The notes beneath the pieces were generated by a model that saw only the letters and a program-made list of their open reading frames with translations, was not told the DNA's origin and ran no database searches. Position numbers and translations under genes: made by a program. A stretch of 64,000 bases of DNA from NCBI GenBank assembly GCA_964538565.1, contig CAZIGW010000055.1, forward strand, positions 1,344 to 65,343, read 5' to 3'. The DNA comes from an uncultured Hyphomicrobiales bacterium. Its GTDB lineage: Bacteria > Pseudomonadota > Alphaproteobacteria > Rhizobiales > Xanthobacteraceae. This document shows positions 11,309 through 53,038 of the stretch, in pieces; position 1 is the stretch's first letter; every line of letters starts with the position of its first letter.

Positions 11309-12357
11309 TGGAGCCGACGGTGGACATCCGTATTCTCGGCATCTCCAAGGAGTTCGGCACGACCGGCGCGCTGCGCGACGTGAGCCTCGACATCGCGGAG
11401 GGCGAACTCGTGGCGCTGCTCGGACCCTCCGGCTCGGGCAAGACGACGCTCCTTCGCGTCATCGCCGGGCTCGAGACGCCGAGTGCGGGCCGGGTGCTGA
11501 TCGCCAACGAGGACGCCACGCGGCTGCCCGTGCAGAGCCGGCGCATCGGCTTCGTGTTCCAGCACTACGCGCTGTTCAAGCATCTCACCGTGTTCGAGAA
11601 CATCGCCTACGGCCTTCGCGTGCGCGCGCGGGCCGAGCGCCCGGCGGGAAGCGAGATCGCGCGCCGCGTGCGCGAGCTGCTCGAACTCGTGCAGCTCCCG
11701 GATGTGGAAAAGCGCTATCCGATGCAGCTCTCGGGCGGCCAGCGCCAGCGCGTGGCGCTGGCGCGCGCGCTCGCGGTGGAGCCGCGGGTTCTCCTGCTCG
11801 ACGAGCCGTTCGGCGCGCTCGACGCCAAGGTGCGCAAGGATCTGCGGCGCTGGCTGCGCGAGGTGCACGAGCGCACGGGACACACGACCATCTTCGTCAC
11901 TCATGACCAGGAAGAGGCGCTGGAGCTCGCCGACCGAGTCGCGATCCTCAACGAAGGCCGGCTCGAGCAGATCGGGACCGCCGACGACGTCTACGACCGG
12001 CCCGCCTCCCCTTTCGTCATGGCCTTCGTGGGCGACACGAGCACGCTGCCGATCGAGATGTGCGAGGGGCGTATGAGCGTCGGCGGCGTGACGGTGGCGG
12101 CCGACATCCAGGGCGAGGCGAACGGCCGCGCGCATCTCTACCTGCGGCCCGGCGACGTCGTCCTGACGGACGTCGAATCCTCTCCCCTCCGGGGCACGGT
12201 GAGCGGCATGCGCCGCACTGCGACCGGACGCCGCGTTCAGGTGCAGATCGGTCCTGCCGAGACCGTCATCGAGATCGAGGCGCCGGCGAGCGCCTGCGCG
12301 AAGGTCGGCGACCGCGTCGGCGTCACCATCCGCCAGGGCCGCGTATTCGCCGCCTGA
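11308..12357 (+). CDS. cysA: Sulfate ABC transporter ATP-binding protein CysA
   Basis: Tail of ORF 10711..12357. ATG 11308 overlaps the cysW stop (ATGA). Motifs [35 protein letters not shown], plus a C-terminal regulatory beta-domain. Confidence 0.92.
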
Positions 12358-39165: not shown

Positions 39166-39633
39166 ATGCGCCAAAAATTTTCCCTGAACGTCAACGGGCA
39201 GGTCCACTCGGTGGAAGCCGATCCCGACATGCCGTTGCTCTATGCGCTGCGTAACGACATCGGCCTCAACAATCCGCATTTCGGTTGCGGGCTCGCGCAG
39301 TGCGGCGCCTGCACGGTTCATCTCGACGGCCAGCCCACCCGTTCGTGCATCACACCGCTCTCGGCCGTCGGCGACGCCAAGATCGTCACGCTGGCCGGGC
39401 TCGGCACGGAGGAGCATCCGCATCCGCTGCAGAAGGCCTACGTGGAAGAGCAGGTGCCGCAGTGCGGCTACTGCATCAACGGCTGGATCATGACCGCCGC
39501 CGCGCTCCTGCGCGAGAAGAAGAAGCCGACCGACGCCGAGATCAAGGACGCCCTGTCGGGGTTGAAGTGCCGCTGCGGGACGCATGTCGGCATTCTGCGC
39601 GCGGTGCGCCGCGCCGCCGAGATGATGGGCTGA
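39166..39633 (+). CDS. (2Fe-2S)-binding small subunit of an IorAB/aldehyde-oxidase-type molybdoenzyme (pair 1)
   Basis: Tail of ORF 38701..39633 from ATG 39166 (GGGAGG SD). Cluster motifs [29 protein letters not shown]. Confidence 0.9.
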   Translation: MRQKFSLNVNGQVHSVEADPDMPLLYALRNDIGLNNPHFGCGLAQCGACTVHLDGQPTRSCITPLSAVGDAKIVTLAGLGTEEHPHPLQKAYVEEQVPQCGYCINGWIMTAAALLREKKKPTDAEIKDALSGLKCRCGTHVGILRAVRRAAEMMG

Positions 39634-39644
39634 GGGAGGCGATC

Positions 39645-41948
39645 ATGACCAAGATGGACAAAGCCACCGCGTTCTCCCGCCGCGCAATCCTCAGGTCGGG
39701 TGGCGCGCTCGTCGTTTCGATCGGCATGCCGGTCGGTTTCAACACGGTGCTCGACATCCAAGCGGCTTACGCGCAGGGAGCGGCCTTCGCCGTCGACACC
39801 AAGCCGCCGCTCGTGCCGAGCGAGCTTGCCTCCTACATCGCGATCAACGCCGACGGCTCCGTCTCCGCCTTCTTCGGCAAGATGGACATGGGCCAGGGCC
39901 TGTTCGTCGCCATCGGCCAGATCGTGGCCGAAGAACTCGACGTGCCGTTCCACAGCGTCAAGGTGTTCATGGGGGACACCGCGACGAGCGTGAACCAGGG
40001 CGGCGCCTCCGGCTCGACCGGCATCCAGGACGGCGGCAAGCAGATGCGCGTGGCCGCCGCCGAGGCGCGGCGCGTGCTCGTCGAAATGGCCGCCGCCAAG
40101 CTCGGGCTGCCGTCCGATCAGCTGACGGTGACCGACGGCATCGTGCACGCCAAGAGCGACCTGTCGAAGAAAGTCAGCTACGGCGAGCTGATCGGCGGCC
40201 GCTACTTCAACGTCCAGCTCGACTGGAACAAGAAGTACGGAAACCCGCTCTACGCGCCCGGCAAGGCGCAGCCGAAGCCGGCGAGCGCGCACAGGATCGT
40301 CGGCCAGCCGATCAAGCGCGAGGACATCGCCCCGAAGGTCTACGCGCGGCAGGACTTCGTCACCGACATCAGGCGGCCCGGCATGCTGCACGGGCGGATG
40401 ATCCGCCCGGCGGTCGCCGGATCGGTCCCGGTGAAGGTCGACGAAAGCTCGATCAAGGACATCGCGGGCGCGAAGGTCGTCTGGCAGAAGGGTTTCCTTG
40501 CCGTCGTCGCCGAGCACGAATGGGACGCGATCCAGGCGGCGCAGAAGCTGAAGGTCGAGTGGTCGAACGCCAGCCCGCCCTTCCCCGAGCAGGCCTCGCT
40601 CTACGACCACATCCGCAAGACCGCCGCGCGCACGCGCCAGGTCGAGAAGGAGAACGGCAACGTCGAGGAGGCGTTCAAGAACGCCGCCCGTGTGATCGAA
40701 GCCGAGTACGAGTGGCCGTTCCAGTCGCACGCCAGCATGGGCCCGGCCTGCGCCGTGGTGGAGATCAAGGACGGCCTCGTCACCTGCTGGACCGGCTCGC
40801 AGAAGTCGCACTTCGTGCGCGAGGGCCTCGCCGACACGCTCGGCATTCCGGTCGAGAAGATCCATGCGATCTGGGTGCCGGGCCCCGGCTCCTACGGCCG
40901 CAACGACGCCGACGACGCCGCCATGGACGCGGCGGTGCTGGCGCAGGCGACCGGCCGCCCGGTGCGCGTGCAGTACATGCGTGAACAGGGCACCGGCTGG
41001 GATCCCAAGGGCCCGGCCTCGATCCACCGCGCGCGCGTGGCGATCGACGCGTCCGGCAAGGTGGTGGCCTACGAGTTCCTCAGCAAGGGATTCTCGCGCG
41101 TCGACGTCAACACCAACGGCGGCCACGCCAGGGACACGCTCGCCGGGCACTTCCGCGACGTGGCGCTGAAGTCGGGCGACGGGTTCGGCGTGCCGGCGGA
41201 ATCCTACGTGTTCGACAACAAGCGGCTCGCCTGGGAAACGATCCCGCCGCTGCTCGACCGCGCCTCGCCGCTGCGCAGTTCGCATCTGCGCGACCCGGTC
41301 GGACCGCAGATCCACTTCGCGAGCGAGTCCTTCATGGACGAGGTCGCGGCGGCCCTCAACGTCGACCCGGTCGAATTCCGGCTGCGCCACATCAAGGACC
41401 CGCGCGACGTCGCCGTCATCAAGGCGGCGGTGGGGAAGTCGGGCTGGCAGACGCGGCCCTCGCCGCGCAAGGACCAGACCGGCGAGACCGTCTCCGGCCG
41501 CGGCATCGCCTACGCGCAGCGCAACGGGACGCGCGTCGCCATCGTGGCGGAGGTCGAGATCAACCGCCGCACCGGCAAGATCTGGGCGCGCAAGTTCACC
41601 GTCGCGCACGACTGCGGCCAGATCATCAACCCGGACGGTCTGACCAAGACGATCGAGGCCAACATCGTGCAGGGGACGAGCCGCACGCTGTGGGAGGAGG
41701 TGAAGTTCGACAGGAAGTCGGTCACCAGCGTCGACTGGATGACCTACCCGATCCTCGACATCACCGAGACCCCGGAGACGATCGACGTGACGCTGATCAA
41801 CCGGCCCGAGATCGCGCCTTCCGGCGCCGGCGAGCCGTCGACCCGTCCGGTCGCGGCGGCCATCGCCAACGCGATCTTCGACGCGACCGGCGTGCGCATC
41901 CGGCGCGTGCCGTTCTCGCCTGACCACGTGAAATCGGCCCTGTCCTGA
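39645..41948 (+). CDS. Molybdopterin-binding large subunit, IorB/aldehyde-oxidase family, Tat-exported (pair 1)
   Basis: Tail of ORF 39285..41948 from ATG 39645 (GGGAGG SD). Tat signal FSRRAILRSGGALVV. XDH-family a/b hammerhead and Mo-binding domains (GQGLFVAIGQIVAEEL, SGAGEPSTRPVAAAIANAI). Confidence 0.88.
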   Translation: MTKMDKATAFSRRAILRSGGALVVSIGMPVGFNTVLDIQAAYAQGAAFAVDTKPPLVPSELASYIAINADGSVSAFFGKMDMGQGLFVAIGQIVAEELDVPFHSVKVFMGDTATSVNQGGASGSTGIQDGGKQMRVAAAEARRVLVEMAAAKLGLPSDQLTVTDGIVHAKSDLSKKVSYGELIGGRYFNVQLDWNKKYGNPLYAPGKAQPKPASAHRIVGQPIKREDIAPKVYARQDFVTDIRRPGMLHGRMIRPAVAGSVPVKVDESSIKDIAGAKVVWQKGFLAVVAEHEWDAIQAAQKLKVEWSNASPPFPEQASLYDHIRKTAARTRQVEKENGNVEEAFKNAARVIEAEYEWPFQSHASMGPACAVVEIKDGLVTCWTGSQKSHFVREGLADTLGIPVEKIHAIWVPGPGSYGRNDADDAAMDAAVLAQATGRPVRVQYMREQGTGWDPKGPASIHRARVAIDASGKVVAYEFLSKGFSRVDVNTNGGHARDTLAGHFRDVALKSGDGFGVPAESYVFDNKRLAWETIPPLLDRASPLRSSHLRDPVGPQIHFASESFMDEVAAALNVDPVEFRLRHIKDPRDVAVIKAAVGKSGWQTRPSPRKDQTGETVSGRGIAYAQRNGTRVAIVAEVEINRRTGKIWARKFTVAHDCGQIINPDGLTKTIEANIVQGTSRTLWEEVKFDRKSVTSVDWMTYPILDITETPETIDVTLINRPEIAPSGAGEPSTRPVAAAIANAIFDATGVRIRRVPFSPDHVKSALS

Positions 41949-42151: not shown

Positions 42152-43234
42152 GTGAAGCAGGTCGAAGCTGCGGTGATCGGAACCGGATGGTGCGGGGGCA
42201 TCCGCGCCGAAACGCTGTCGCGCTCGGCGCTCGTGGACAAGCTGCACGTGTGCGAGATCCGCCCCGATCGGCTGGCGGAAATCAAGGCGGTCACCAACGC
42301 GGCGACCGCAACGCTCGACTATCAGGACATCATCCGCAATCCCGACATCTCGGTCGTCTACGTCTGCACCACGCCGGAGCAGACGCACTTTCCCATCACA
42401 CGCGACTGCCTGAAGGCCGGCAAGCACGTTCTGCTGGAGAAGCCGATCGCGATGCAACTGTGGGAGGCCGACGAGCTGATCACGATCGCGCGCCGCGGCG
42501 GCCTGAAATTCACCATCGGATATTCGCAGCGCTTCAACACCAAGTTCGCCTTCGCCAAGAAGAAGATCGTCGACGGCACGCTCGGCCGTCCGGTGAGCGT
42601 GATGGTCAGCCGCCACCTCAGCCGCAGCCTCGGCAAGAAGATCGCGAGCCGCGTGAAGCTCTCGCCGGTCGTCATGGAATCGACCCACGACCTCGATTTC
42701 GTGTTCTGGCTGCTCGAGCCGGCAAAGCCGGTGCGGGTCTACTCGCAGGGATCCTACGGCTACATGCAGGCGGTGAACGGCTCCTACGACTGCATGTGGA
42801 CCACGGTGACGATGGACAACGGCGTCGTGGTCGTGCTGGGCGGCGGCTGGAACCTGCCGCCGAGCTATCCGAACTACTGCTCGACCTGGGTGGAGATCAC
42901 CGGCACCGAAGGCGCGCTCATCCTCGACGACACTCATCGCGACAACTGGCTCAACACCGTGCAGGAGGGCACGCGCTTCCCGATGTCCACCATGCCGGGC
43001 GAGCAGGTCGACCACGTGTTCGCCGGGCAGATGGGCCCGGAGACGATCCATTTCCTCGAGTCCTGCATCATGGATCGCCCCGTCATGGTGACGCCGGAGA
43101 GCGCCCGCATGGTGATGGAGTGCTATACGGCCGCCGATCTCTCGGCCGAGCGCAACGAGCCGATCGACCTGCCGCTGTCGAACGAGGCCCTCTCCGCCAT
43201 CGCCGAGAACCATCAGCGGCAGGCCGTCGGCTGA
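42152..43234 (+). CDS. Gfo/Idh/MocA-family NAD(P)-dependent oxidoreductase
   Basis: ORF 42152..43234 (GTG start). Rossmann motif AAVIGTGWCGG. Family motif VLLEKPIA. Confidence 0.85.
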   Translation: MKQVEAAVIGTGWCGGIRAETLSRSALVDKLHVCEIRPDRLAEIKAVTNAATATLDYQDIIRNPDISVVYVCTTPEQTHFPITRDCLKAGKHVLLEKPIAMQLWEADELITIARRGGLKFTIGYSQRFNTKFAFAKKKIVDGTLGRPVSVMVSRHLSRSLGKKIASRVKLSPVVMESTHDLDFVFWLLEPAKPVRVYSQGSYGYMQAVNGSYDCMWTTVTMDNGVVVVLGGGWNLPPSYPNYCSTWVEITGTEGALILDDTHRDNWLNTVQEGTRFPMSTMPGEQVDHVFAGQMGPETIHFLESCIMDRPVMVTPESARMVMECYTAADLSAERNEPIDLPLSNEALSAIAENHQRQAVG

Positions 43235-43268: not shown

Positions 43269-45608
43269 ATGGCTGCGGCGACCGCCACGAACTCCGATCG
43301 CGCCTTGCGCCTCGAGGATCCGCCGCTGCTGCGCGGGGAAGGCCGTTTCGTCGACGACGTGCGGCGACCCAACCAGGCGTTTGCCGCGTTCGTCCGCTCG
43401 CCGCATGCCGCCGGCCGCATCCGCAAGATCGACACCGCGGACGCGTCGCGCGCGCCCGGCGTGGTCGCGGTTCTGACCGGGGCCGACATGATAGCAGCGG
43501 GCGCCGGCAGCATCTCGCGCCACCCGCCGATGGTCGGCCGCGGCGGCGCCAGGCTCGTGATGCCGTTCCGGCCCGCGCTCGCCGACGAACGGGTGGCGCA
43601 CGTCGGCCAGGCGGTTGCGCTCGTGATCGCCGATTCCGCCGGCCAGGCGCAGGACGCCGCCGAACGGGTCGCGGTCGACTACGAACCGCTGCCCGCCGTC
43701 ACGGACGTCCGCGCGGCCCTCGAAAAGGATGCGCCGCAGGTCTGGAGCGAAGCACCCGGCAACGTGGCGCTCGACTGGCCGGGCCCCGTGGCGGACGACG
43801 GCGCGAACGCGCGCGCGGTCGAGGAGGCATTCGCCGCGGCCGCGCACATCGCCCGGGTCTCGCTCGTCAACCAGCGGCTCGTCGTCGCCACCATGGAGCC
43901 GCGCGGCGCGACCGCCGAGTACGACGCAGCCGGTGATACCTATACGCTGCGCACCTGCTCGCAGAGCGCCGCGGTGGTGCGCGACCAGCTTGTCTCGATC
44001 ATGAACTGGCCGCGCGAGCGCCTGCGGGTCATCAGCGAGGATGTGGGCGGTGCCTTCGGGATGAAGACCCCCGTATACCCGGAGTACCCGGCGCTGCTCG
44101 TCGCCGCCAAGCACACCCGCCGGCCGGTGCACTGGATGTCGACCCGCTCCGAGGCGTTTCTGAGCGACAACCAGGGACGCGACGGAATTCTCGAGGCGGA
44201 GCTGGCGCTCGACGAAAAGGGAAAATTCCTCGCGCTGCGCGTACGCGAGCTTGCGAGCCTCGGCGCCTTCGTGACGCCGGCCGGCGCGCATCTCGCGACC
44301 ACCAATTTCGCGCGCTGCTTTCCCGGCATGTACCGCATTCCCCGCATCGACGTCGGGGTGAAGTGCGTGTTCACCAACACGGTGCCGACCGGACCCTATC
44401 GCGGCGCCGGACGGCCGGAAGCGAACTATCTGCTCGAGCGGCTGGTCGACGAGGCCGCGCGCGTCAGCGGCATCGACCGCGTGAGCCTGCGGCGGCGCAA
44501 CCTCATTCCGAAATCGGCGATGCCGTATCGCACGCCGGTCGGCACCACATACGACAGCGGCGATTTCCCGGCCGTGTTCGACAGGGCGCTAGCAGCGAGC
44601 GGCTACAAGGAATTTTCCCAACGCCGGCGCGAGGCCAGAAAGCGCGGAAAGTTTCGCGGCATCGGCATCTGCTGTTTCGTCGAGCACTCGGGCGGCCTGC
44701 CGACCGAGGGCGCCGCGATGACGTTTCCGGGCGATGGCCGGATCGAGGTGGGCATCGGCGTGCAGGCGACCGGCCAGGGCCATGCGTCGGTGTTCGGCCG
44801 CCTCGCCGCCGCGCGGCTCGGCGTGCCGGCCGATCGCGTCACGGTGCGGCAGGGCGACACGCAGCTCGGCGTGGCGAGCTCGGCTTCGGTCGCGTCCCGC
44901 TCGGCGATGGTGGTCGGCACCGCGATCGTGCGCGTCGCAGAGGCGGTGGTCGAGAAGGGACGCAAGGTTGCCGCGCAACTGCTCGAAGCGGCCGATTCCG
45001 ACATCACCTACCGGGACGGCATGTTCGCGGTCGCGGGCACCGACCGGCGGCTGTCGCTGTTCGAGGTCGCGGCACGGGCGAAAGACCTTCATGCACGCGG
45101 CGAGATCGCCGAGACGCTCGACACCAATCTCACGGCCGACACGCCTCAGACGTTTCCCAACGGCTGCCACGTCGCCGAGGTGGAGGTCGATCCGGAGACC
45201 GGCGTCGTCTGCGTGGTCACCTACACGGCGGTCGACGATTGCGGCAACGTGCTCGACCACATGATCGTCGAGGGACAGGTGCAGGGCGGCATCGCCCAGG
45301 GGCTCGGCCAGGCGCTGTTCGAGAATGTCGTGTACGACGGCGACAGCGGTCAACTCGTTACCGGGTCGTTCATGGACTACGCCATGCCGCGCGCGAGCGA
45401 CATGCCGGCGATCGTCGGCTCGGAGCTGTCCGTCGCCGCCACGACCAATCCGCTCGGCGTGAAGGGCGTCGGCGAGGCGGGCACGATCGGTTCGCTCGCC
45501 GCCATCATGAACGCCATCGCGGATGCGCTGCCGGAAGGAGCCGGCGCCAGGCTCGACATGCCGGCGACGCCCCAGCGGGTGTGGGACGCTTGCCGGTCGG
45601 CGTCATAG
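43269..45608 (+). CDS. Xanthine dehydrogenase/CoxL-family molybdopterin-binding large subunit (form II CoxL-like loop), no adjacent FAD subunit
   Basis: ORF 43269..45608. N-terminus LRLEDPPLLRGEGRFVDDV. Active-site loop GPYRGAGRPEA (about 44391-44414). C-terminus GVKGVGEAGTIGSLAAIMNAIADAL. Confidence 0.88.
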   Translation: MAAATATNSDRALRLEDPPLLRGEGRFVDDVRRPNQAFAAFVRSPHAAGRIRKIDTADASRAPGVVAVLTGADMIAAGAGSISRHPPMVGRGGARLVMPFRPALADERVAHVGQAVALVIADSAGQAQDAAERVAVDYEPLPAVTDVRAALEKDAPQVWSEAPGNVALDWPGPVADDGANARAVEEAFAAAAHIARVSLVNQRLVVATMEPRGATAEYDAAGDTYTLRTCSQSAAVVRDQLVSIMNWPRERLRVISEDVGGAFGMKTPVYPEYPALLVAAKHTRRPVHWMSTRSEAFLSDNQGRDGILEAELALDEKGKFLALRVRELASLGAFVTPAGAHLATTNFARCFPGMYRIPRIDVGVKCVFTNTVPTGPYRGAGRPEANYLLERLVDEAARVSGIDRVSLRRRNLIPKSAMPYRTPVGTTYDSGDFPAVFDRALAASGYKEFSQRRREARKRGKFRGIGICCFVEHSGGLPTEGAAMTFPGDGRIEVGIGVQATGQGHASVFGRLAAARLGVPADRVTVRQGDTQLGVASSASVASRSAMVVGTAIVRVAEAVVEKGRKVAAQLLEAADSDITYRDGMFAVAGTDRRLSLFEVAARAKDLHARGEIAETLDTNLTADTPQTFPNGCHVAEVEVDPETGVVCVVTYTAVDDCGNVLDHMIVEGQVQGGIAQGLGQALFENVVYDGDSGQLVTGSFMDYAMPRASDMPAIVGSELSVAATTNPLGVKGVGEAGTIGSLAAIMNAIADALPEGAGARLDMPATPQRVWDACRSAS

Positions 45609-45774
45609 GACACCGCGGCAACGCTGGCGACGCCGCCTTGCCGGGCGCTTGGCAACCCTCGCCGGGGACGCCGTACGCAAACCGCGACGCGCGTCCCACC
45701 ATGCGGGTCACCTTCGCGCGACCGCGCCCCGTCACGATTCTGTGAGACCGAGCGGAGCCGTCATAGGCGGGCCT

Positions 45775-45853: not shown

Positions 45854-46306
45854 ATGATTCGTCTTACCATCAACGGAACCGCGCATGAGGTCGACGTCGA
45901 GCCCGACACTCCGCTGCTGTGGGTCTTGCGCGAACAGGTCGGCCTGACTGGCACCAAGTACGGCTGCGGCATCGCCCAGTGCGGCGCCTGCACGGTCCAC
46001 ATCGACGGCGTGGCGACCCGCTCCTGCGGTCTGCAGGTGGGCGACGCGGTCGGAAAGCAGATCACCACGATCGAAGGTCTCGCTTCCAACGGCAGCATGC
46101 ACCCGGTGCAGAAGGCCTGGCTCGATCTCGACGTGCCCCAGTGCGGCTATTGCCAGAGCGGCATGATCATGGCGGTCGCGGCCCTCCTGAAGGAGAAGCC
46201 CAAGCCCACCGATGCCGATATCGACGAGGCGATCACCAACATCTGCCGATGCGGCACGTACCAGCAGGTTCGCGCCGCGATCCACGCTGCTGCCACGAAC
46301 GCGTAA
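45854..46306 (+). CDS. (2Fe-2S)-binding small subunit of an IorAB-type molybdoenzyme (pair 2)
   Basis: ORF 45854..46306 (GAGGAGGAAGGG SD). Cluster motifs [28 protein letters not shown]. Confidence 0.92.
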
Positions 46307-46320
46307 AGGGGGAGGCAGCC

Positions 46321-48495
46321 ATGACCATCATGCCGAAGATCGATCGCCGTTCGTTCCTCGTTGGCAGCGCCGCCGCGGGCGGCGGTCTCGCCCTCGGATT
46401 GCAGCTCCCGCTCGGTCCGGACACGGTTCGCGCGGCCGGCAGCGCGCCCGAGGTCAACGCCTGGGTGGTGATCCGGCCGGACGACACCGTCGTCATCCGC
46501 ATCGCCCGCTCGGAAATGGGCCAGGGCACGCTGACCGGCCTGGCGCAGCTCGTCGCCGAAGAGCTCGACTGCGACTGGTCGAAGGTCACGACCGAATATC
46601 CGACGCCCGGCCAGAACGTGGCGCGCAAGCGCGTATGGGGCGACTTCGCCACCGGCGGCAGCCGCGGCATTCGCGCCTCGGAGGATTACGTGCGCAAGGG
46701 CGGCGCGGCCGCCCGCATGATGCTGATCCAGGCGGCGGCGAACGAATGGAAAGTGTCGCCCGCCGAGTGCAGCGCCGCGAACAGCGTCATCACCCACAAG
46801 GCGAGCGGACGCTCGACGACCTACGGGAAGGTCGCGGACGCCGCCGCCAAGCTCGAGCCGCCGAAGGACATCAAGCTCAAGGATCCGAAGGACTGGAAGA
46901 TCGCCGGCAAGCCGCTGAAGCGGCTCGACACCCTTCCCAAGCTGAGCGGCAAGCAGATCTACGGCATCGATCTCAAGTTGCCCGGCATGCTCAACGCCGC
47001 CATCAAGGCCTGCCCGGTGTTCGGCGGCACGGTGAAGAGCTTCGACTCCGCCAAGGTCGAAGGCATGAAGGGCGTGAAGAAGGTCATGCAGGTCGGCAAT
47101 GACGCGGTCGCCGTCGTCGCCGACACCTGGTGGCACGCCAAGACGGCGCTCGACGCGCTCCCGATCGTCTGGGACGAGGGTCCGAACGCCAAGGTCTCAA
47201 GCGCCTCGATCGCCGAATTCCTGAAGGAGGGACTGACGGCCGAGCAGGCGTTCGTCGGCAACCGCAACGGTGACGTGAAGGCGGCGCTCTCCGGCGCGGC
47301 GAAGACGGTGGAAGCCGTGTACGGCTATCCCTACCAGAACCACGCCACGATGGAGCCGATGAACGCGACCGCGCTCTACACGCCGGATCGTTGCGAGGTG
47401 TGGTGCCCGACGCAGAACGGCGAAGCGGCGTTCGCGGCCGTGCTCGAAGCCTCGGGCCTGCCGGCGTCGAAGTGCGACGTGCACAAGCTCCTGTGCGGCG
47501 GCGGCTTCGGCCGGCGCGGGCGCAGCGACTACGTCACCCAGGCCGTCCTCATCGCCAAGCAGATGCCGGGCACGCCGATCAAGCTCATCTGGTCGCGCGA
47601 AGAGGACATGACCCACTGCACCTATCATCCGATCACGCAGGCCAAGCTGGTCGGCGGGCTGGATGCGGCGGGCAACCTTCAGACCCTCCACATCCGCATA
47701 TCGGGACAGTCGATCCTCACCTCGCTGTTCCCCTCGCGGCTGCAGAACGGCATGGATCCGGCGACGTTCCAAGGCCTCGCCCCCAAGGGCGAAGCCGCCA
47801 TCGGCTACACGGTGCCGAACCTCCTGGTGGAGCACGCGATGCGCAATCCGCACGTGCCGCCGGGCTTCTGGCGCGGCGTCAACGTCAACCAGAACGCCAT
47901 CTATCTCGAGTGCTTCATGGACGAGCTGGCGCATGCGGCCGGACAGGATCCGCTCGAGTTCCGGCGCAAGCTGATGGCCAACCACCCGTTGCATCTCGGC
48001 GTGCTCAACGCGGTCGCCGAGAAGGCCGGATGGGGCAAGCCGGCGCCGGCCGGCGTCTTCCGGGGCATCGCCCAGCACATGGGGTACGGCAGCTACGTCG
48101 CCGCCGTCGCCGAAGTGTCGGTCAGCGACAAGGGCGAGTTGAAGATCCACCGCATCGTCGCCGCGACCAATCCCGGCTACGCCGTCAATCCGGCGCAGAT
48201 CGAGCGGCAGGTCGCGGGTTCGTTCGTCTACGGGCTCTCCGCCATGCTGTACGGCGAATGCACCGTCAAGGACGGCGCCATCGAGCAGACGAACTTCGAC
48301 ACTTACAACGTGATGCGCATCGCCGAGATGCCGAAGGTCGAGGTGATCGTCATGCCGACCGGCGGCTTCTGGGGTGGCGTCGGCGAGCCGACGATCTGCG
48401 TCGCGGCGCCGGCGGTGCTCAACGCGATCTTTGCGGCGACCGGCAAGCGCATCCGCACGATCCCGCTCAAGAACCACGACCTGCGCAAGGCGTGA
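46321..48495 (+). CDS. Molybdopterin-binding large subunit, IorB family, Tat-exported (pair 2)
   Basis: Tail of ORF 45919..48495 from ATG 46321 (GGGGGAGG SD). Tat signal IDRRSFLVGSAAAGGGLALG. Motifs SEMGQGTLTGLAQLVAEEL and GGVGEPTICVAAPAVLNAI. Confidence 0.9.
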   Translation: MTIMPKIDRRSFLVGSAAAGGGLALGLQLPLGPDTVRAAGSAPEVNAWVVIRPDDTVVIRIARSEMGQGTLTGLAQLVAEELDCDWSKVTTEYPTPGQNVARKRVWGDFATGGSRGIRASEDYVRKGGAAARMMLIQAAANEWKVSPAECSAANSVITHKASGRSTTYGKVADAAAKLEPPKDIKLKDPKDWKIAGKPLKRLDTLPKLSGKQIYGIDLKLPGMLNAAIKACPVFGGTVKSFDSAKVEGMKGVKKVMQVGNDAVAVVADTWWHAKTALDALPIVWDEGPNAKVSSASIAEFLKEGLTAEQAFVGNRNGDVKAALSGAAKTVEAVYGYPYQNHATMEPMNATALYTPDRCEVWCPTQNGEAAFAAVLEASGLPASKCDVHKLLCGGGFGRRGRSDYVTQAVLIAKQMPGTPIKLIWSREEDMTHCTYHPITQAKLVGGLDAAGNLQTLHIRISGQSILTSLFPSRLQNGMDPATFQGLAPKGEAAIGYTVPNLLVEHAMRNPHVPPGFWRGVNVNQNAIYLECFMDELAHAAGQDPLEFRRKLMANHPLHLGVLNAVAEKAGWGKPAPAGVFRGIAQHMGYGSYVAAVAEVSVSDKGELKIHRIVAATNPGYAVNPAQIERQVAGSFVYGLSAMLYGECTVKDGAIEQTNFDTYNVMRIAEMPKVEVIVMPTGGFWGGVGEPTICVAAPAVLNAIFAATGKRIRTIPLKNHDLRKA

Positions 48496-48500
48496 GGCGA

Positions 48501-48528
48501 CGGGCGGCGGCCCCGCAGCCGCCGCCCG
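48501..48528 (+). other. GC-rich intercistronic stem-loop between iorB2 and the cytochrome c gene
   Basis: CGGGCGGCGGC (48501-48511) pairs with GCCGCCGCCCG (48518-48528). No T-tail follows. Confidence 0.5.
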
Positions 48529-48539
48529 CACGTTTGCCG

Positions 48540-48839
48540 ATGAGGGCAGCATTCCTCTGCATCGGCGCGGCAGCGGCCGTCATCTCGACTGCCCCTGCAT
48601 TCGCCGGCCAAGCCGGGACGCCGTTCGGCGTCGCCGCCTGCACGGGCTGTCATCCTGCCCACGCCGGCGCGCCGAACGCGATTCCCTCGTTGGCGGGTCG
48701 CAAGGCGACCGAGATCGAGGATGCGATGCGAGGGTTTCGCGCCGGCGAGCGGCCCGCGACGGTGATGGACCGCATCGCCAAGGGATTTTCCGACGACGAG
48801 ATCCGGGCCATTGCCGCCTGGTACGCCGCCCGGAAATGA
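48540..48839 (+). CDS. Monohaem class I cytochrome c (FccA/SoxE-like partner of the flavoprotein, or electron acceptor of IorAB pair 2)
   Basis: Tail of ORF 47391..48839 from ATG 48540. Signal peptide MRAAFLCIGAAAAVISTAPAFA. Haem motif CTGCH. Confidence 0.8.
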   Translation: MRAAFLCIGAAAAVISTAPAFAGQAGTPFGVAACTGCHPAHAGAPNAIPSLAGRKATEIEDAMRGFRAGERPATVMDRIAKGFSDDEIRAIAAWYAARK

Positions 48840-48858
48840 CGAAGGACGCCGCGCCCGC

Positions 48859-50133
48859 ATGAGCGGACCCAACATCGACCGGCGCGCGCTTCTGGCTTCC
48901 GCGGCCGCCGCGGGATGCACGGCGGTTTTCGCCCCGGCGATCGCGCAGGCGGCGCCGCGCGTCGTCGTCATCGGCGGCGGCTTCGCGGGCGCGAGTTGCG
49001 CGCGCGCGCTCAAGCAGGCCGACGCACGCATCGCGGTGACGCTGATCGAGGCAAACGCGACCTTCACGGCCTGCCCGTTCAGCAACAGCGTGATCGCCGG
49101 CCTGCGCGACCTCAGGCAGCAGCAGTTCACCTACGATCGCCTCGCCGCCGGGGGCATCGCGGTGAGGATCGCGACCGCCGCCGCGGTCGATCCGCACGCC
49201 CGCACGGTCATGCTCGCCGACCGCACGCGGATCTCCTACGACCGTCTGGTGGTGGCGCCCGGCATCGGCTTTCGCTGGGGCGCGCTCCAGGGCTACGACG
49301 AGGTCGCCGCGCAGACCATGCCGCACGCCTGGATGGGCGGTGACCAGATCGACCTCTTGCGGCGGCAGCTGGAGGCCATGCGCGACGGCGGCGTGGTCGC
49401 GATCGCGGCGCCGGTCAATCCGTCGCGGTGTCCACCCGGCGCCTACGAACGCGCCAGCCTGATCGCGTACTACCTCAAGACGCGCAAGCCGCGCTCGAAG
49501 CTGTTCGTGCTCGACGCCAAGGACACCTTCTCGATGCAGAAGCTGTTCCAGAGCGCCTGGAAGGAACTCTATGCCGGCCTGATCGAGTGGGTGCCGCTCT
49601 CGTCCGGCGGCAATCTCACCTCGGTCGAGGTCGCGACCAGGACGCTCGTGACCGAATTCGACAGCTACAAGGTCGACGTCGCCAACGTCATTCCGCCGCA
49701 GAAGGCCGGTCCGCTCGCCGAGCGCGCCGGCGTCGCGGACCGCACGGGCTGGTGCCCGGTCGACCCGGCGACATTCGAATCGAAGCTGCAGAAGAACATT
49801 CACGTGATCGGCGATGCGGCCATCGCCGGCGCCATGCCGAAGTCGGCATTCGCCGCCAGCACGCAAGGCAAGCTGTGCGCGGCCGCCATCGTCAGGCTGC
49901 TTCGCAACGAGGCCCCGCCGGCGCCGGTGCTGGTGAGCACGTGCTACAGCCTGGTAGCGCCCGACGACGCGATCTCGATCGCCGGGGTTTACCGGCCGGT
50001 CGAGGGCCAATATCTGGAGGTCGAGAACTCGGGCGGTGTGAGCCCCGCCGATGCGCCGCGCGCGTTTCGCGCCCGGGAAGCGAAATTCGCCGATGCATGG
50101 TTCAAGACGGTGACCAATGAGATCTTCGGGTGA
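48859..50133 (+). CDS. soxF: Flavocytochrome c sulfide dehydrogenase flavoprotein subunit (FccB/SoxF)
   Basis: Tail of ORF 48811..50133 from ATG 48859. Tat signal IDRRALLASAAAAG. FAD motif RVVVIGGGFAGASCA. FccB-like motifs CPFSN and RCPPGAYERA. Confidence 0.88.
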   Translation: MSGPNIDRRALLASAAAAGCTAVFAPAIAQAAPRVVVIGGGFAGASCARALKQADARIAVTLIEANATFTACPFSNSVIAGLRDLRQQQFTYDRLAAGGIAVRIATAAAVDPHARTVMLADRTRISYDRLVVAPGIGFRWGALQGYDEVAAQTMPHAWMGGDQIDLLRRQLEAMRDGGVVAIAAPVNPSRCPPGAYERASLIAYYLKTRKPRSKLFVLDAKDTFSMQKLFQSAWKELYAGLIEWVPLSSGGNLTSVEVATRTLVTEFDSYKVDVANVIPPQKAGPLAERAGVADRTGWCPVDPATFESKLQKNIHVIGDAAIAGAMPKSAFAASTQGKLCAAAIVRLLRNEAPPAPVLVSTCYSLVAPDDAISIAGVYRPVEGQYLEVENSGGVSPADAPRAFRAREAKFADAWFKTVTNEIFG

Positions 50134-50626
50134 AAAGGCGGGTGCGCGACTCGCGGTTGCCGTCCTCACCGCGGCGTGGCTCGTGGGCCTCTCGGCGTGG
50201 CCGGCGCGCGCCGAGGACGCGACGCTGCGGCCCTATGTGGTGGTGGGCGACGCCATCCCGGCCTCGCTGACCGGCACGCCGGGCAATCCGGCGCGCGGGC
50301 GCGCGATCGTGGCCAATCGCCAAGTCGGGCTCTGCCTCCTCTGCCATGCCGGTCCGTTTCCCGAGCAGAAGTTCCAGGGCACCATCGGGCCCGATCTGGA
50401 CGGGGCCGGCGCGCGCTGGAGCGAGGGCCAGTTGCGGTTGCGCATCGTCGACGCGAGCCGCATCAATCCCGCCACCATCATGCCGCCTTACTATCGCATC
50501 GATGGACTGGCGCGCGTCGCCCCGGCGTATCGCGGCAAGCCGGTGCTGAGCGCGGAGCAGATCGAGGACGTGGTGGCTTATCTCGAGACCCTGCGCGGGA
50601 ACGCCAACGAGACGAGGACGCCATGA
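50117..50626 (+). CDS. soxX: SoxX monohaem cytochrome c
   Basis: ORF 50117..50626, overlapping the soxF 3' end by 17 nt. Signal peptide present. Motif GNPARGRAIVANRQVGLCLLCH, haem motif CLLCH. Confidence 0.88.
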   Translation: MRSSGEKAGARLAVAVLTAAWLVGLSAWPARAEDATLRPYVVVGDAIPASLTGTPGNPARGRAIVANRQVGLCLLCHAGPFPEQKFQGTIGPDLDGAGARWSEGQLRLRIVDASRINPATIMPPYYRIDGLARVAPAYRGKPVLSAEQIEDVVAYLETLRGNANETRTP

Positions 50627-51108
50627 CGGCATCATTTCGCCATCCGTCACGCCGCGACGTGCTCCGCGCCACCGGTACGATGGCGGCGGGCGGCATCGTC
50701 TCCGTGCTTCTTGTGCGCGGCGCCCGGGCCACGCCTGCGTCGATGCAGATCGCCATCCACAAGGTCGTCGGCGAGGCGAGCATCAAGCCGGGCAGGGTGA
50801 AGATCGACATTCCGCCCGTGGTCGAGAACGGCAACACCGTGCCGATGACGGTCGCGGTGGAGAGCCCGATGACGGCGTCCGACCACGTGAAGGCCATCCA
50901 TGTGTTCAACGAGAAAAATCCGCAGCCCAAAGTCATCAGCGTGCGTCTTGGCCCGCGCGCCGGGCGCGCCAGGATCTCGACCCGCATCAGGCTCGCCGAC
51001 TCGCAGAAGGTGATCGCCATCGCCGAGTTCAGCGACGGCTCGTTCTGGTCGGATTCCGCCGACGTGATCGTGACGCTCGCGGCCTGCGTCGAGGATCTGA
51101 CGCCATGA
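50623..51108 (+). CDS. soxY: SoxY-related sulfur carrier protein with an AACVE (not GGCGG) C-terminal arm
   Basis: Tail of ORF 50176..51108 from ATG 50623 (ATGA overlap with soxX). Tat signal SRRDVLRATG. SoxY core ENGNTVPMTVAVESPMTASDHVKAIHVFNEKNP. C-terminus VIVTLAACVEDLTP; the Cys codon is 51085-51087. Confidence 0.85.
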   Translation: MTASFRHPSRRDVLRATGTMAAGGIVSVLLVRGARATPASMQIAIHKVVGEASIKPGRVKIDIPPVVENGNTVPMTVAVESPMTASDHVKAIHVFNEKNPQPKVISVRLGPRAGRARISTRIRLADSQKVIAIAEFSDGSFWSDSADVIVTLAACVEDLTP

Positions 51109-51425
51109 CCCGCGCGCTCATCCACGTCCCCCCCAAGGCCAAACGCGGCGAGATCATCGAGGTCAAGACCCTGATCTCGCACGTCATGGAGACCGGTTTC
51201 CGCCACAGCTCGATCGGCGTGCGGATTCCGCGCGACATCATCACGACGCTCGTGTGCACCTACAACGGCGAAGAGATCTTTCGCGCTGAGCTCTCGCCGG
51301 CGATCGCCGCCAATCCGTTCGTCACCTTCTTCACGGTCGCGACCGAGAGCGGAACGATCGCGTTCAACTGGACCGGCGACAACGGATTCTCCGCCAACGC
51401 CTCGGCGAACATCACGGTCGAATGA
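51105..51425 (+). CDS. soxZ: SoxZ
   Basis: ORF 51105..51425, ATGA overlap with soxY. Motifs KRGEIIEVKTLISHVMETG and ANPFVTFFTVATESGTIAFNW are typical of SoxZ. Confidence 0.88.
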   Translation: MTRALIHVPPKAKRGEIIEVKTLISHVMETGFRHSSIGVRIPRDIITTLVCTYNGEEIFRAELSPAIAANPFVTFFTVATESGTIAFNWTGDNGFSANASANITVE

Positions 51426-52228
51426 CGCTCACCCGCAAGCCTCCGAGATCTTCGGCGTGGATGCTGGCGCTCGTGCTTGCGGGCTGCGGGCTCGTGCCCC
51501 CTGCGCGCTCCGGCGAGATCGCGCCGGCCGATCGGCGCTCGGACTACGAGTTCATGAGCGCCGAGACGCGCGCCATGCAGGACGACGACACCGCCAACCC
51601 GGGCATGCTGTGGGTGCTCGACGGCGAAGCCCTGTGGAACCGCAAGATCGGAGCGGCCGATCGCTCGTGCGCCGACTGCCACGGCGATGCGAAGACGAGC
51701 ATGAAGGGCGTGGCCGCGCGCTATCCGGCGTTCGACTCGACCCGCGACAAGCCGGTCGACATCGAGGAGCGCATCAACATCTGCCGCAGCAACCACCAGA
51801 AAGCGACGCCGCTGCCGTTCGAGAGCCGCGAGCTCCTGGCGCTGACCGCCTATGTGGCGCTGCAGTCGCGCGGCATGCCGATTGCGCCTCCCGCCGACGA
51901 GCGCCTGCGGCCCTACAAGGAGGCCGGGCGGGAGATCTTTCGCCGCCGCCAGGGGCAGCTCAACATCTCCTGCAGCCAGTGCCACGACGACAACTGGGGC
52001 AGGAAGCTCGCCGGCAACATCGTGCCGCAGGCACACCCGACCGGCTATCCGATCTATCGCCTCGAATGGCAAAGCCTCGGCTCGCTGCAGCGACGTCTGC
52101 GCAATTGTCTCATCGGCATGCGCGCCGAAGCCTATCCGTACGGCTCGCCCGAATACCTGGCGCTGGAAGTCTTCCTGATGGCGCGGGCGCGCGGCATGAA
52201 GATGGAGACGCCGGCGGTGCGACCTTGA
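51422..52228 (+). CDS. soxA: SoxA dihaem cytochrome c
   Basis: ORF 51422..52228, ATGA overlap with soxZ. Haem motifs CADCH and CSQCH. Conserved distal Cys in LQRRLRNC. Confidence 0.9.
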   Translation: MTLTRKPPRSSAWMLALVLAGCGLVPPARSGEIAPADRRSDYEFMSAETRAMQDDDTANPGMLWVLDGEALWNRKIGAADRSCADCHGDAKTSMKGVAARYPAFDSTRDKPVDIEERINICRSNHQKATPLPFESRELLALTAYVALQSRGMPIAPPADERLRPYKEAGREIFRRRQGQLNISCSQCHDDNWGRKLAGNIVPQAHPTGYPIYRLEWQSLGSLQRRLRNCLIGMRAEAYPYGSPEYLALEVFLMARARGMKMETPAVRP

Positions 52229-52234
52229 GGCCGC

Positions 52235-53038
52235 TCACAGGCCGGGCGGCACGCGCGCAGGCCCGCCCGTCGGTTTCGTCGCCTCGACCGTGAGTTCGAA
52301 CACCATGGTGGTCTCGAGCCGGTCGCCGAACCAGGCCGAGACGGCAGCCGAGCGGGCTTCGACATAGCGGGGCTCGCCGTCGTCGAGGACCATCGGCAGA
52401 TCGTGGCCGGGCACGACGATGCTGCCGGGTCGGCGCCGCCACAGCTCCCAGATCCGCTCGATCGATCGGCGGCTGACCGCCGCGTCATAGGTCATGTCGG
52501 CCTCGCGCGAGACGAGCTCGGTACGGTTCTTGGCCGCATCGCCGGTGAAGATCACGTCGCGATCGCCGCCCGAAAGAACGAACACGAGGTGGCCCGGCGT
52601 GTGTCCGGGTGCATCGGCCGCCGTGATCCCGGGGATCACCTCGTCTGCGCCGCGCACGCGGCGCACCTGCCTCGAGCGGTCGAGTTCGTGCACGTAGAGT
52701 TCCGGGACCGACGTGAGGCCGAAAGGCTCCTTCACGGCCCAGGCCAGCTCCTCCGCGCCCACGTGCACCGTCGCGTTGGCGAACGCCAGCCAGTTCACGC
52801 AATGATCGTAGTGGGCATGCGTAAGCAACACGTCGGTGACATCGGCCGGCTCGAGGCCGCGCGCGGCGAGCCGCTCGACGAGCAGCCGGCGATAGCCGAA
52901 CGAGCCGACGTCGACGAGCGCGACACGCCCGTTGCCGCGCAGCAGCGCCACGGTGCTCCAGCCGAGCGGCCCGTGGCACACGGACTTGCCCGGGAACCCC
53001 TGCACCACGAGGTCGATCTCGAAGCCGCCGACGTTCAT
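52235..53038 (-). CDS. MBL-fold metallo-hydrolase (AHL-lactonase-like)
   Basis: ORF 52235..53038(-). HxHxDH motif LLTHAHYDHC and downstream GHTPGH. No signal peptide. Its stop lies 6 nt from the soxA stop (convergent). Confidence 0.82.
   Translation of the reverse strand: MNVGGFEIDLVVQGFPGKSVCHGPLGWSTVALLRGNGRVALVDVGSFGYRRLLVERLAARGLEPADVTDVLLTHAHYDHCVNWLAFANATVHVGAEELAWAVKEPFGLTSVPELYVHELDRSRQVRRVRGADEVIPGITAADAPGHTPGHLVFVLSGGDRDVIFTGDAAKNRTELVSREADMTYDAAVSRRSIERIWELWRRRPGSIVVPGHDLPMVLDDGEPRYVEARSAAVSAWFGDRLETTMVFELTVEATKPTGGPARVPPGL

Follow-up and report, generated by a model that had tools for sequence, protein, structure and literature searches.

An IorAB-type molybdoenzyme gene pair is co-inherited with genes for SoxXA and an AACIE-arm SoxYZ carrier

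We analysed a 64,000-nt stretch of contig CAZIGW010000055.1 (the window) from an uncultured soil bacterium of the Xanthobacteraceae, in which eight co-directional genes, iorA-iorB-cyt c-soxF-soxX-soxY-soxZ-soxA (45854-52228, + strand), place a molybdoenzyme of the xanthine oxidase (XO) family, IorAB, at the head of genes for SoxXA and for a SoxYZ carrier with a variant, AACIE-type arm. All coordinates are positions in the window, on its forward strand. Our survey of relatives shows that iorAB and soxXYZA are strictly inherited together, in different classes and even phyla. The string is a self-contained and conserved operon for periplasmic proteins, and it moves by horizontal transfer. We give about even odds to the molybdenum (Mo) enzyme and the variant SoxXA-SoxYZ proteins acting together on reduced (organo)sulfur and not on thiosulfate. 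The cluster type is not a new kind, having already been noticed in the literature and in NCBIfam.

Conservation of the unit in relatives

Twenty close relatives of the window SoxY were aligned and the alignment was scanned against one genome per GTDB species, which gave at least 577 loci with a SoxY relative. The best 80 of these were taken with 10-kb flanks and matched by tblastn with the window proteins; they derive from the Xanthobacteraceae, Bradyrhizobium, the Hyphomicrobiaceae, the Stellaceae, Telmatospirillum, Burkholderiales/Betaproteobacteria and Rokubacteria/Methylomirabilota. Counting loci with at least 4.9 kb of DNA 5' of soxY, and taking as a match at least 60% identity on the same strand, we found IorA and IorB both encoded 5' of soxY in 66/66 loci, all picked by SoxY-arm similarity alone. 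SoxF was present in 63/66 loci and the small cytochrome in 37/66 (missing in 29/66, and absent from Bradyrhizobium-type loci), and SoxA was found in 70/70 loci with enough downstream DNA. IorA and IorB, at 72-86% and 69-80% identity to the window respectively, are the best-conserved proteins of the string. A sequence-only reading of the window had named conservation of the iorAB linkage beforehand as a test of its claim, and the linkage held in every one of the 66 loci and across phyla, so that its phrase "distinct, uncharacterised periplasmic module" is a fair description. Chance cannot account for the arrangement, since well over 100 independent loci share this gene string.

In the reverse test metagenome contigs were picked by IorB alone. 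IorA always lay 5' of IorB in these contigs, and soxXYZA followed in 25 of the 32 with at least 4.2 kb of downstream DNA; several contigs seemingly without soxXYZA proved to hold iorAB in tandem, with cyt c and soxF next in line. In a tree of IorB the copies next to sox genes occupy a single tight clade (support 99) and the clade sister to it, with solitary copies scattered inside both. The sequences from Rokubacteria/Methylomirabilota and from Burkholderiales branch from within those of the Alphaproteobacteria, and therefore the whole unit has been transferred between phyla.

Reduced and rearranged versions of the string define its core. Four loci lack both soxF and cyt c and keep iorAB-soxXYZA (L018, L110, L142, L153), one lacks the same two genes and has the order iorAB-soxYZ-soxXA (L065), and in three soxYZ lies directly behind iorB (L074, L115, L126). 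IorAB thus keeps its place beside the carrier genes whatever else is lost; SoxF and the small cytochrome c are optional accessories, and the core of IorAB, SoxXA and SoxYZ(AACIE) is obligatory.

Some loci hold more than one iorAB pair. At L074 (7377-20471, a Burkholderiales metagenome-assembled genome) iorAB-soxYZ(AACIE) is followed in this order by a diverged iorAB' (51% identical), soxX, a second SoxY' ending ...VTESACLDQS, soxZ' and soxA, and three tandem pyrroloquinoline quinone (PQQ) methanol/ethanol-type dehydrogenases stand after soxA. Tandem duplication of iorAB 5' of cyt c and soxF was seen in L007, L035, L038, L041, L051, L062, L108, L147 and L154, and a triplication, again followed by cyt c and soxF, in L099 (82-8614). 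The copy nearest the sox genes in the tandem loci falls in a separate sister clade of IorB.

De novo clustering of the flanking open reading frames (ORFs) gave no family present in more than 31/80 loci, the commonest being ABC-transporter parts and generic genes, and no conserved regulator or accessory gene was found in the flanks of these 80 loci. The other window genes were likewise not conserved neighbours in the fetched loci. Because the flanking genes are not conserved, we take the unit to span iorA to soxA.

Gene organisation in the window

The ORF table and the junction sequences give closely spaced genes throughout the string. The spacing is 14 nt between iorA (45854-46306) and iorB (46321-48495), 44 nt between iorB and cyt c (48540-48839) and 19 nt between cyt c and soxF (48859-50133). 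The start of soxX (50117-50626) lies inside soxF with an overlap of 17 nt, and 4-nt ATGA overlaps join soxX to soxY (50623-51108), soxY to soxZ (51105-51425) and soxZ to soxA (51422-52228). These coordinates and spacings, together with an 11-bp hairpin after iorB, had been read from the letters beforehand and were all reproduced here, and the earlier claim of a single operon-like string is supported.

Upstream, between a CoxL-like gene and iorA, sits a terminator-like stem-loop with a T run (45758-45770, + strand; CCGTCATAGGCGG then GCCTTTTTGT), identified as a consensus match only, which is likely to mark the 5' boundary of the unit. Downstream, a convergent gene for a metallo-beta-lactamase (MBL)-fold protein (52235-53038, - strand) has its stop 6 nt past that of soxA and shows weak similarity to acyl-homoserine lactone (AHL) lactonases. 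It is probably unrelated to the unit because it is not kept beside it in relatives. We considered this hydrolase as a substitute for SoxB and rejected it, as it is convergent, has no signal peptide and gave one 32% match in 160 loci.

The molybdoenzyme IorAB

Domain calls were made by NCBIfam and Pfam searches of the window proteins with curated cut-offs. The small subunit IorA (+ strand) is predicted to carry two [2Fe-2S] clusters (Pfam Fer2 and Fer2_2) and has no signal peptide, its export probably taking place by hitch-hiking with IorB on the twin-arginine translocation (Tat) pathway. The molybdopterin-binding large subunit IorB (+ strand), an XO-family hydroxylase by its MoCoBD_1 and MoCoBD_2 domains, begins with a Tat signal (KIDRRSFLVGSAAAGGG; TIGR01409, 24.4 bits against a cut-off of 16.7). 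The pair thus has the make-up of IorAB, a two-[2Fe-2S] small subunit and a MoCoBD_1/2 large subunit, with no FAD-binding gene in the string.

The closest solved structure to IorB is 8gy3_C, the large subunit of a Gluconobacter aldehyde dehydrogenase (E = 1e-75 over the full length). A GEP motif near the C-terminus of IorB, GVGEPTICVAAPAV, aligns with GLGEPGVTVVAPAI of 8gy3_C, and we take its glutamate to be the catalytic base. No defined substrate emerged from the NCBIfam search, in which every match of IorAB lay far under its cut-off and no equivalog model was reached. Among 152 relatives 180/724 positions of IorB are at least 97% invariant; none of the 180 is a cysteine, and we dropped the idea of a cysteine relay in this subunit.

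Isoquinoline 1-oxidoreductase (IorAB) and the Gluconobacter enzyme AldFGH (8gy3) resemble the window pair in their two-[2Fe-2S] small subunit, their large subunit with the Mo cofactor (Moco), the Tat signal and the catalytic glutamate motif of the latter, the use of a cytochrome c acceptor and the lack of an FAD subunit. The window pair differs in having no trihaem membrane-anchoring subunit and in that its IorB belongs to a separate, tightly conserved clade defined by adjacency to sox genes.

Cytochrome, SoxF and the SoxXYZA proteins

All products of the string except IorA carry export signals. The gene behind iorB (+ strand, 99 codons) encodes a monohaem cytochrome c with a Sec signal and the haem motif CTGCH, which matches Pfam Cytochrome_CBB3 at the cut-off (27.2 bits) and is probably the cytochrome partner of SoxF. 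SoxF/FccB (+ strand) is a Tat-exported flavoprotein with FCSD_central (147 bits) and FCSD-flav_bind (90 bits) domains, and these domains with the adjoining CxxCH cytochrome are those of a flavocytochrome c sulfide dehydrogenase (FccAB/SoxEF).

SoxX, the monohaem cytochrome of SoxXA (+ strand), reaches 83.2 bits with TIGR04485 (cut-off 61). The dihaem cytochrome SoxA (+ strand) reaches 232.6 bits with TIGR04484 (cut-off 110), matches Pfam SoxA-TsdA_cyt-c over two stretches, and has two CxxCH motifs and a conserved C-terminal cysteine in RNCLIG. A lipobox-like LAGC in the SoxA signal peptide (51422-51520) was dropped as a feature, being found in only 12/108 orthologues. SoxZ, the carrier partner (+ strand), is recognised by Pfam SoxZ and by TIGR04490 at 82.6 bits (cut-off 76).

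The SoxY paralogue (+ strand, Tat signal) scores 222.9 bits with TIGR04487 (cut-off 172), a curated NCBIfam family named "SoxY-related AACIE arm protein", and falls below the cut-off of the true-SoxY model TIGR04488 (109.8 bits vs 125). Its C-terminus ends ...VTLAACVEDLTP, with the arm AACVE in place of GGCGG. Over 122 orthologues the arm follows the consensus [LI][AG]AC[TVLI]E[EDG] and then 1-3 residues, with an invariant cysteine. That the arm is a variant had been recognised from the sequence, and the two models bear this out; the variant is not new, its family being curated already. SoxY and SoxZ also match TIGR04557 under its cut-off (65 and 37 bits).

SoxB and SoxCD

The window ORFs were chosen by codon-position G+C and the 20 largest outside the string were scanned with Pfam. 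Neither the SoxB domains (Metallophos/5_nucleotid_C) nor the SoxC domain (Oxidored_molyb) was found in these 20 largest plausible ORFs, in agreement with the earlier statement that soxB and soxCD are not in the window. A SoxB-type gene was not among the conserved neighbours of the unit in the 80 loci, and primer-derived SoxB motifs, a weak test, gave no match in 2.1 Mb of DNA.

Comparison with known systems

The cluster most like ours is the "second sox gene cluster" of Starkeya novella, which has an XO-family Mo enzyme (Snov_1975/1976) in the same operon as a flavocytochrome c (Snov_1977-1978) and SoxAX/SoxYZ (Snov_1979-1982), without SoxB or SoxCD (Kappler et al. 2013, PMC3797975). Compared by description and not by sequence, the gene content is the same, and so is the arrangement by locus-tag order; in the window, as in that published description, Mo enzyme, flavocytochrome c and soxXYZA stand together without soxB/CD. 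The association of a xanthine dehydrogenase-family molybdoenzyme with a sox string, which had been put forward as not described before, is thus on record in S. novella. Its authors call the cluster a single operon, and they give neither a function nor a survey of other genomes; they report very low expression on glucose, methanol and thiosulfate.

In Bradyrhizobium diazoefficiens thiosulfate oxidation needs only soxY1 of the canonical locus and soxY2 is dispensable (PMC5748708); soxY2 is a second soxY homologue outside the canonical locus and may belong to the AACIE cluster type. The Bradyrhizobium loci in our survey have iorAB-soxF-soxXYZA with the AACIE arm, and the small cytochrome is absent from them.

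Likeness to the canonical (Paracoccus-type) Sox system lies in SoxX, SoxZ and SoxA, which pass equivalog cut-offs and include both parts of SoxXA, and in SoxY, which is of the same fold family with a Tat signal and a cysteine near the C-terminus. The unit differs in its carrier arm (A-A-C-x-E-(D/E)-x(1-3) vs GGCGG), in having a Mo hydroxylase as obligatory partner, and in lacking SoxB and SoxCD, none being found within 10 kb in 160 loci by the weak motif test only. A precedent for a non-GGCGG SoxYZ-type carrier that goes with a periplasmic non-Sox dehydrogenase is the quinoprotein dehydrogenase-associated SoxYZ-like carrier (TIGR04557), which differs in being a SoxY-SoxZ fusion with a PQQ-enzyme partner, and under whose cut-off the window SoxY and SoxZ remain. 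Literature searches on the AACIE arm, or on isoquinoline 1-oxidoreductase together with soxY, found no relevant match.

The hairpin after iorB and RNA data

The 44-nt spacer behind iorB holds a G+C stem-loop of 11 bp with a 6-nt loop (48501-48528, + strand; fold -33.3 kcal/mol, z = -3.0 vs shuffles), which is followed 3' of the stem by UUU only and has no U tract. Stems with 8 or more unbroken pairs were present in the post-iorB spacer of 87/105 related loci with a 30-250-nt spacer, in 56/57 where soxF comes next and in 30/44 where the cytochrome does. These stems have a median z of -3.0 and differ in sequence between loci, and as the stem recurs at this rate with differing sequences it is a conserved feature and not a chance palindrome. 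Since it lacks a U tract, it would in the simplest reading be an intercistronic attenuator or RNA-stabilising element, by which IorAB and the proteins encoded after it would probably be made in unequal amounts.

In ten Rokubacteria/Methylomirabilota loci (L002, L003, L005, L008, L011, L026, L046, L071, L080, L144) the cytochrome c gene begins at the iorB stop codon or overlaps it, and the same ten have a perfect palindrome of ~16-17 bp, GCCGCGGCGATCGG...CCGATCGCCGCGGC-like, within the region coding for the cytochrome signal peptide.

Soil metatranscriptomes gave short contigs of relatives only, and at 97% likeness only 40-90-nt unitigs match. The iorAB genes are covered far more deeply there than the sox genes, a difference confounded by the conservation of IorAB and by paralogues. 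In runs matching a Bradyrhizobium locus contigs span iorB-soxF and soxF-soxX, with depth in the flanks equal to that in the unit, so that they may be DNA. Just 3' of soxA in Bradyrhizobium tropiciagri (L042, ~11570-11690) a short stretch whose contig depth is 10-40 times that of its surroundings, with many loose ends, is typical of a dispersed repeat (repetitive extragenic palindromic, REP-like, element).

Proposed function and alternative explanations

We infer that the Mo enzyme and the carrier belong to one pathway for the oxidation of reduced sulfur or of an organosulfur compound, and that thiosulfate is probably not what it acts on. The grounds for setting thiosulfate aside are the very weak expression of the S. 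novella copy on it (PMC3797975) and the soxY2 result in B. diazoefficiens, if that gene is of this cluster type. In a tentative scheme SoxXA (and SoxF, from sulfide) would attach the substrate to the cysteine of SoxY in disulfide or persulfide linkage, the Mo centre of IorAB might oxidise the carrier-bound adduct with the addition of water-derived oxygen, and the respiratory chain could receive the electrons by way of the [2Fe-2S] clusters of IorA and the c-type haems of cyt c, SoxX and SoxA. That IorAB acts directly on the AACIE-SoxY adduct, in a Sox pathway needing neither SoxB nor SoxCD, we regard as possible and rather doubtful. IorAB might stand in for SoxCD-type chemistry, as had been suggested from the sequence.

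Several points weigh against a joint action of the Mo enzyme and the carrier on sulfur. XO-family enzymes hydroxylate carbon centres (aldehydes, N-heterocycles, CO), and we know of no precedent for their action on a protein-bound sulfur adduct. The closest solved relative of IorB is an aldehyde dehydrogenase. Among the contigs picked by IorB about 7 pairs of the same clade (74-79% identical) have no sox genes within 3-10 kb, and therefore the enzyme may work alone. The hairpin behind iorB could uncouple iorAB from the sox genes, and no carrier-releasing step without SoxB is known. Kappler et al. themselves thought that the S. novella cluster may lack functional significance, or may matter in other conditions (PMC3797975).

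A different explanation takes IorAB for a periplasmic dehydrogenase of the ordinary kind, acting on a small free aldehyde or N-heterocycle and kept beside sox genes only in order to share c-type cytochromes, with the Sox chemistry separate. Its nearest structure is that of the Gluconobacter membrane aldehyde dehydrogenase, an enzyme that works with a cytochrome c subunit, and since the module encodes neither an FAD subunit nor a dedicated multihaem subunit an external cytochrome is needed; the solitary pairs of the same clade fit this account, and the tandem iorAB copies (L099, L007, L038, L041) resemble a diversification of substrate specificity. It leaves unexplained, however, why SoxYZ with an invariant cysteine is present in every locus (70/70) and why soxYZ lies directly behind iorB in the variants that are most reduced. 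The monohaem cytochrome is moreover missing in 29/66 loci while IorAB and SoxXYZA stay together, which weakens the suggestion, made from the sequence alone, that IorAB merely shares this cytochrome, and the passage of the complete unit between phyla speaks for a single function. We consider cytochrome sharing unlikely, while giving it real weight. An aldehyde could also be brought to the carrier itself, if the variant SoxYZ were no sulfur carrier but a periplasmic protein thiol that traps it as a thiohemiacetal, in the manner of glutathione, for the Mo oxidoreductase (compare TIGR04557). The sub-threshold TIGR04557 matches of SoxY and SoxZ, the closeness of IorB to an aldehyde dehydrogenase and the three PQQ dehydrogenases after the module in L074 are weak hints in this direction, but SoxX and SoxA pass the cut-offs for the "true" thiosulfate system and SoxF is a sulfide dehydrogenase, which point to sulfur; the PQQ dehydrogenases are not conserved neighbours, and Mo aldehyde oxidoreductases need no thiol carrier. 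An aldehyde-trapping carrier is in our judgement improbable.

The doubt voiced for S. novella leads to the remaining alternative, a redundant and functionally insignificant partial duplicate of the canonical sox cluster, which Kappler et al. considered. It would accord with the very low expression of that copy (PMC3797975) and with the lack of a thiosulfate phenotype for B. diazoefficiens soxY2 (PMC5748708), a gene that may be of this cluster type. Against it, the reading frames are intact in more than 100 loci, protein identity stays at 60-86% across phyla with horizontal spread, a conservation that implies a dN/dS well below 1, the arm differs from GGCGG and yet is strongly conserved itself, and sequences of relatives are present in soil metatranscriptomes, so that we give such redundancy hardly any credence. 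Our survey shows the Mo enzyme to be an obligatory partner of the variant carrier and no accidental neighbour, and what was a "redundant second sox cluster" thereby becomes a well-delimited target of 7-8 genes.

Significance

The unit is common in soil, with at least 577 species-representative genomes encoding the variant SoxY and thousands of metagenome proteins 65-83% identical, and cultured hosts exist in Bradyrhizobium and Starkeya. Standard marker sets miss the AACIE-arm SoxY. A survey marker table uses the true-SoxY model TIGR04488 for soxY (PMC6662431), and a study of the SoxY family dropped sequences without a "GGC" motif (PMC11237559), which is why the AACIE-arm family escaped it. Should the Mo enzyme indeed act on a carrier-bound intermediate, Sox biochemistry and the known chemistry of the XO family would both be widened, and IorAB would be the first XO-family enzyme with a protein-bound (organo)sulfur substrate, widespread in soil Alphaproteobacteria, Burkholderiales and Rokubacteria.

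Other molybdoenzyme genes in the window

A second IorA/IorB-type pair lies at ~39170-41948 (+ strand), encoding a Fer2 and Fer2_2 protein and then a MoCoBD_1/2 protein with a Tat-like N-terminus (MTKMDKATAFSRRAIL). It shows ~47% (IorA) and 26% (IorB) identity to the sox-linked pair's relatives among the fetched loci, is of another subfamily and has no sox genes behind it. Behind it come a Gfo/Idh/MocA oxidoreductase gene (42152-43234, + strand) and then a gene (43269-45608, + strand) whose product is a CoxL/XdhA-like Moco large subunit carrying a hammerhead domain; no gene for a small or an FAD subunit was seen beside it. With the sox-linked IorB included, three XO-family large subunits, two of the IorB type and one CoxL/XdhA-like, are encoded inside 10 kb.

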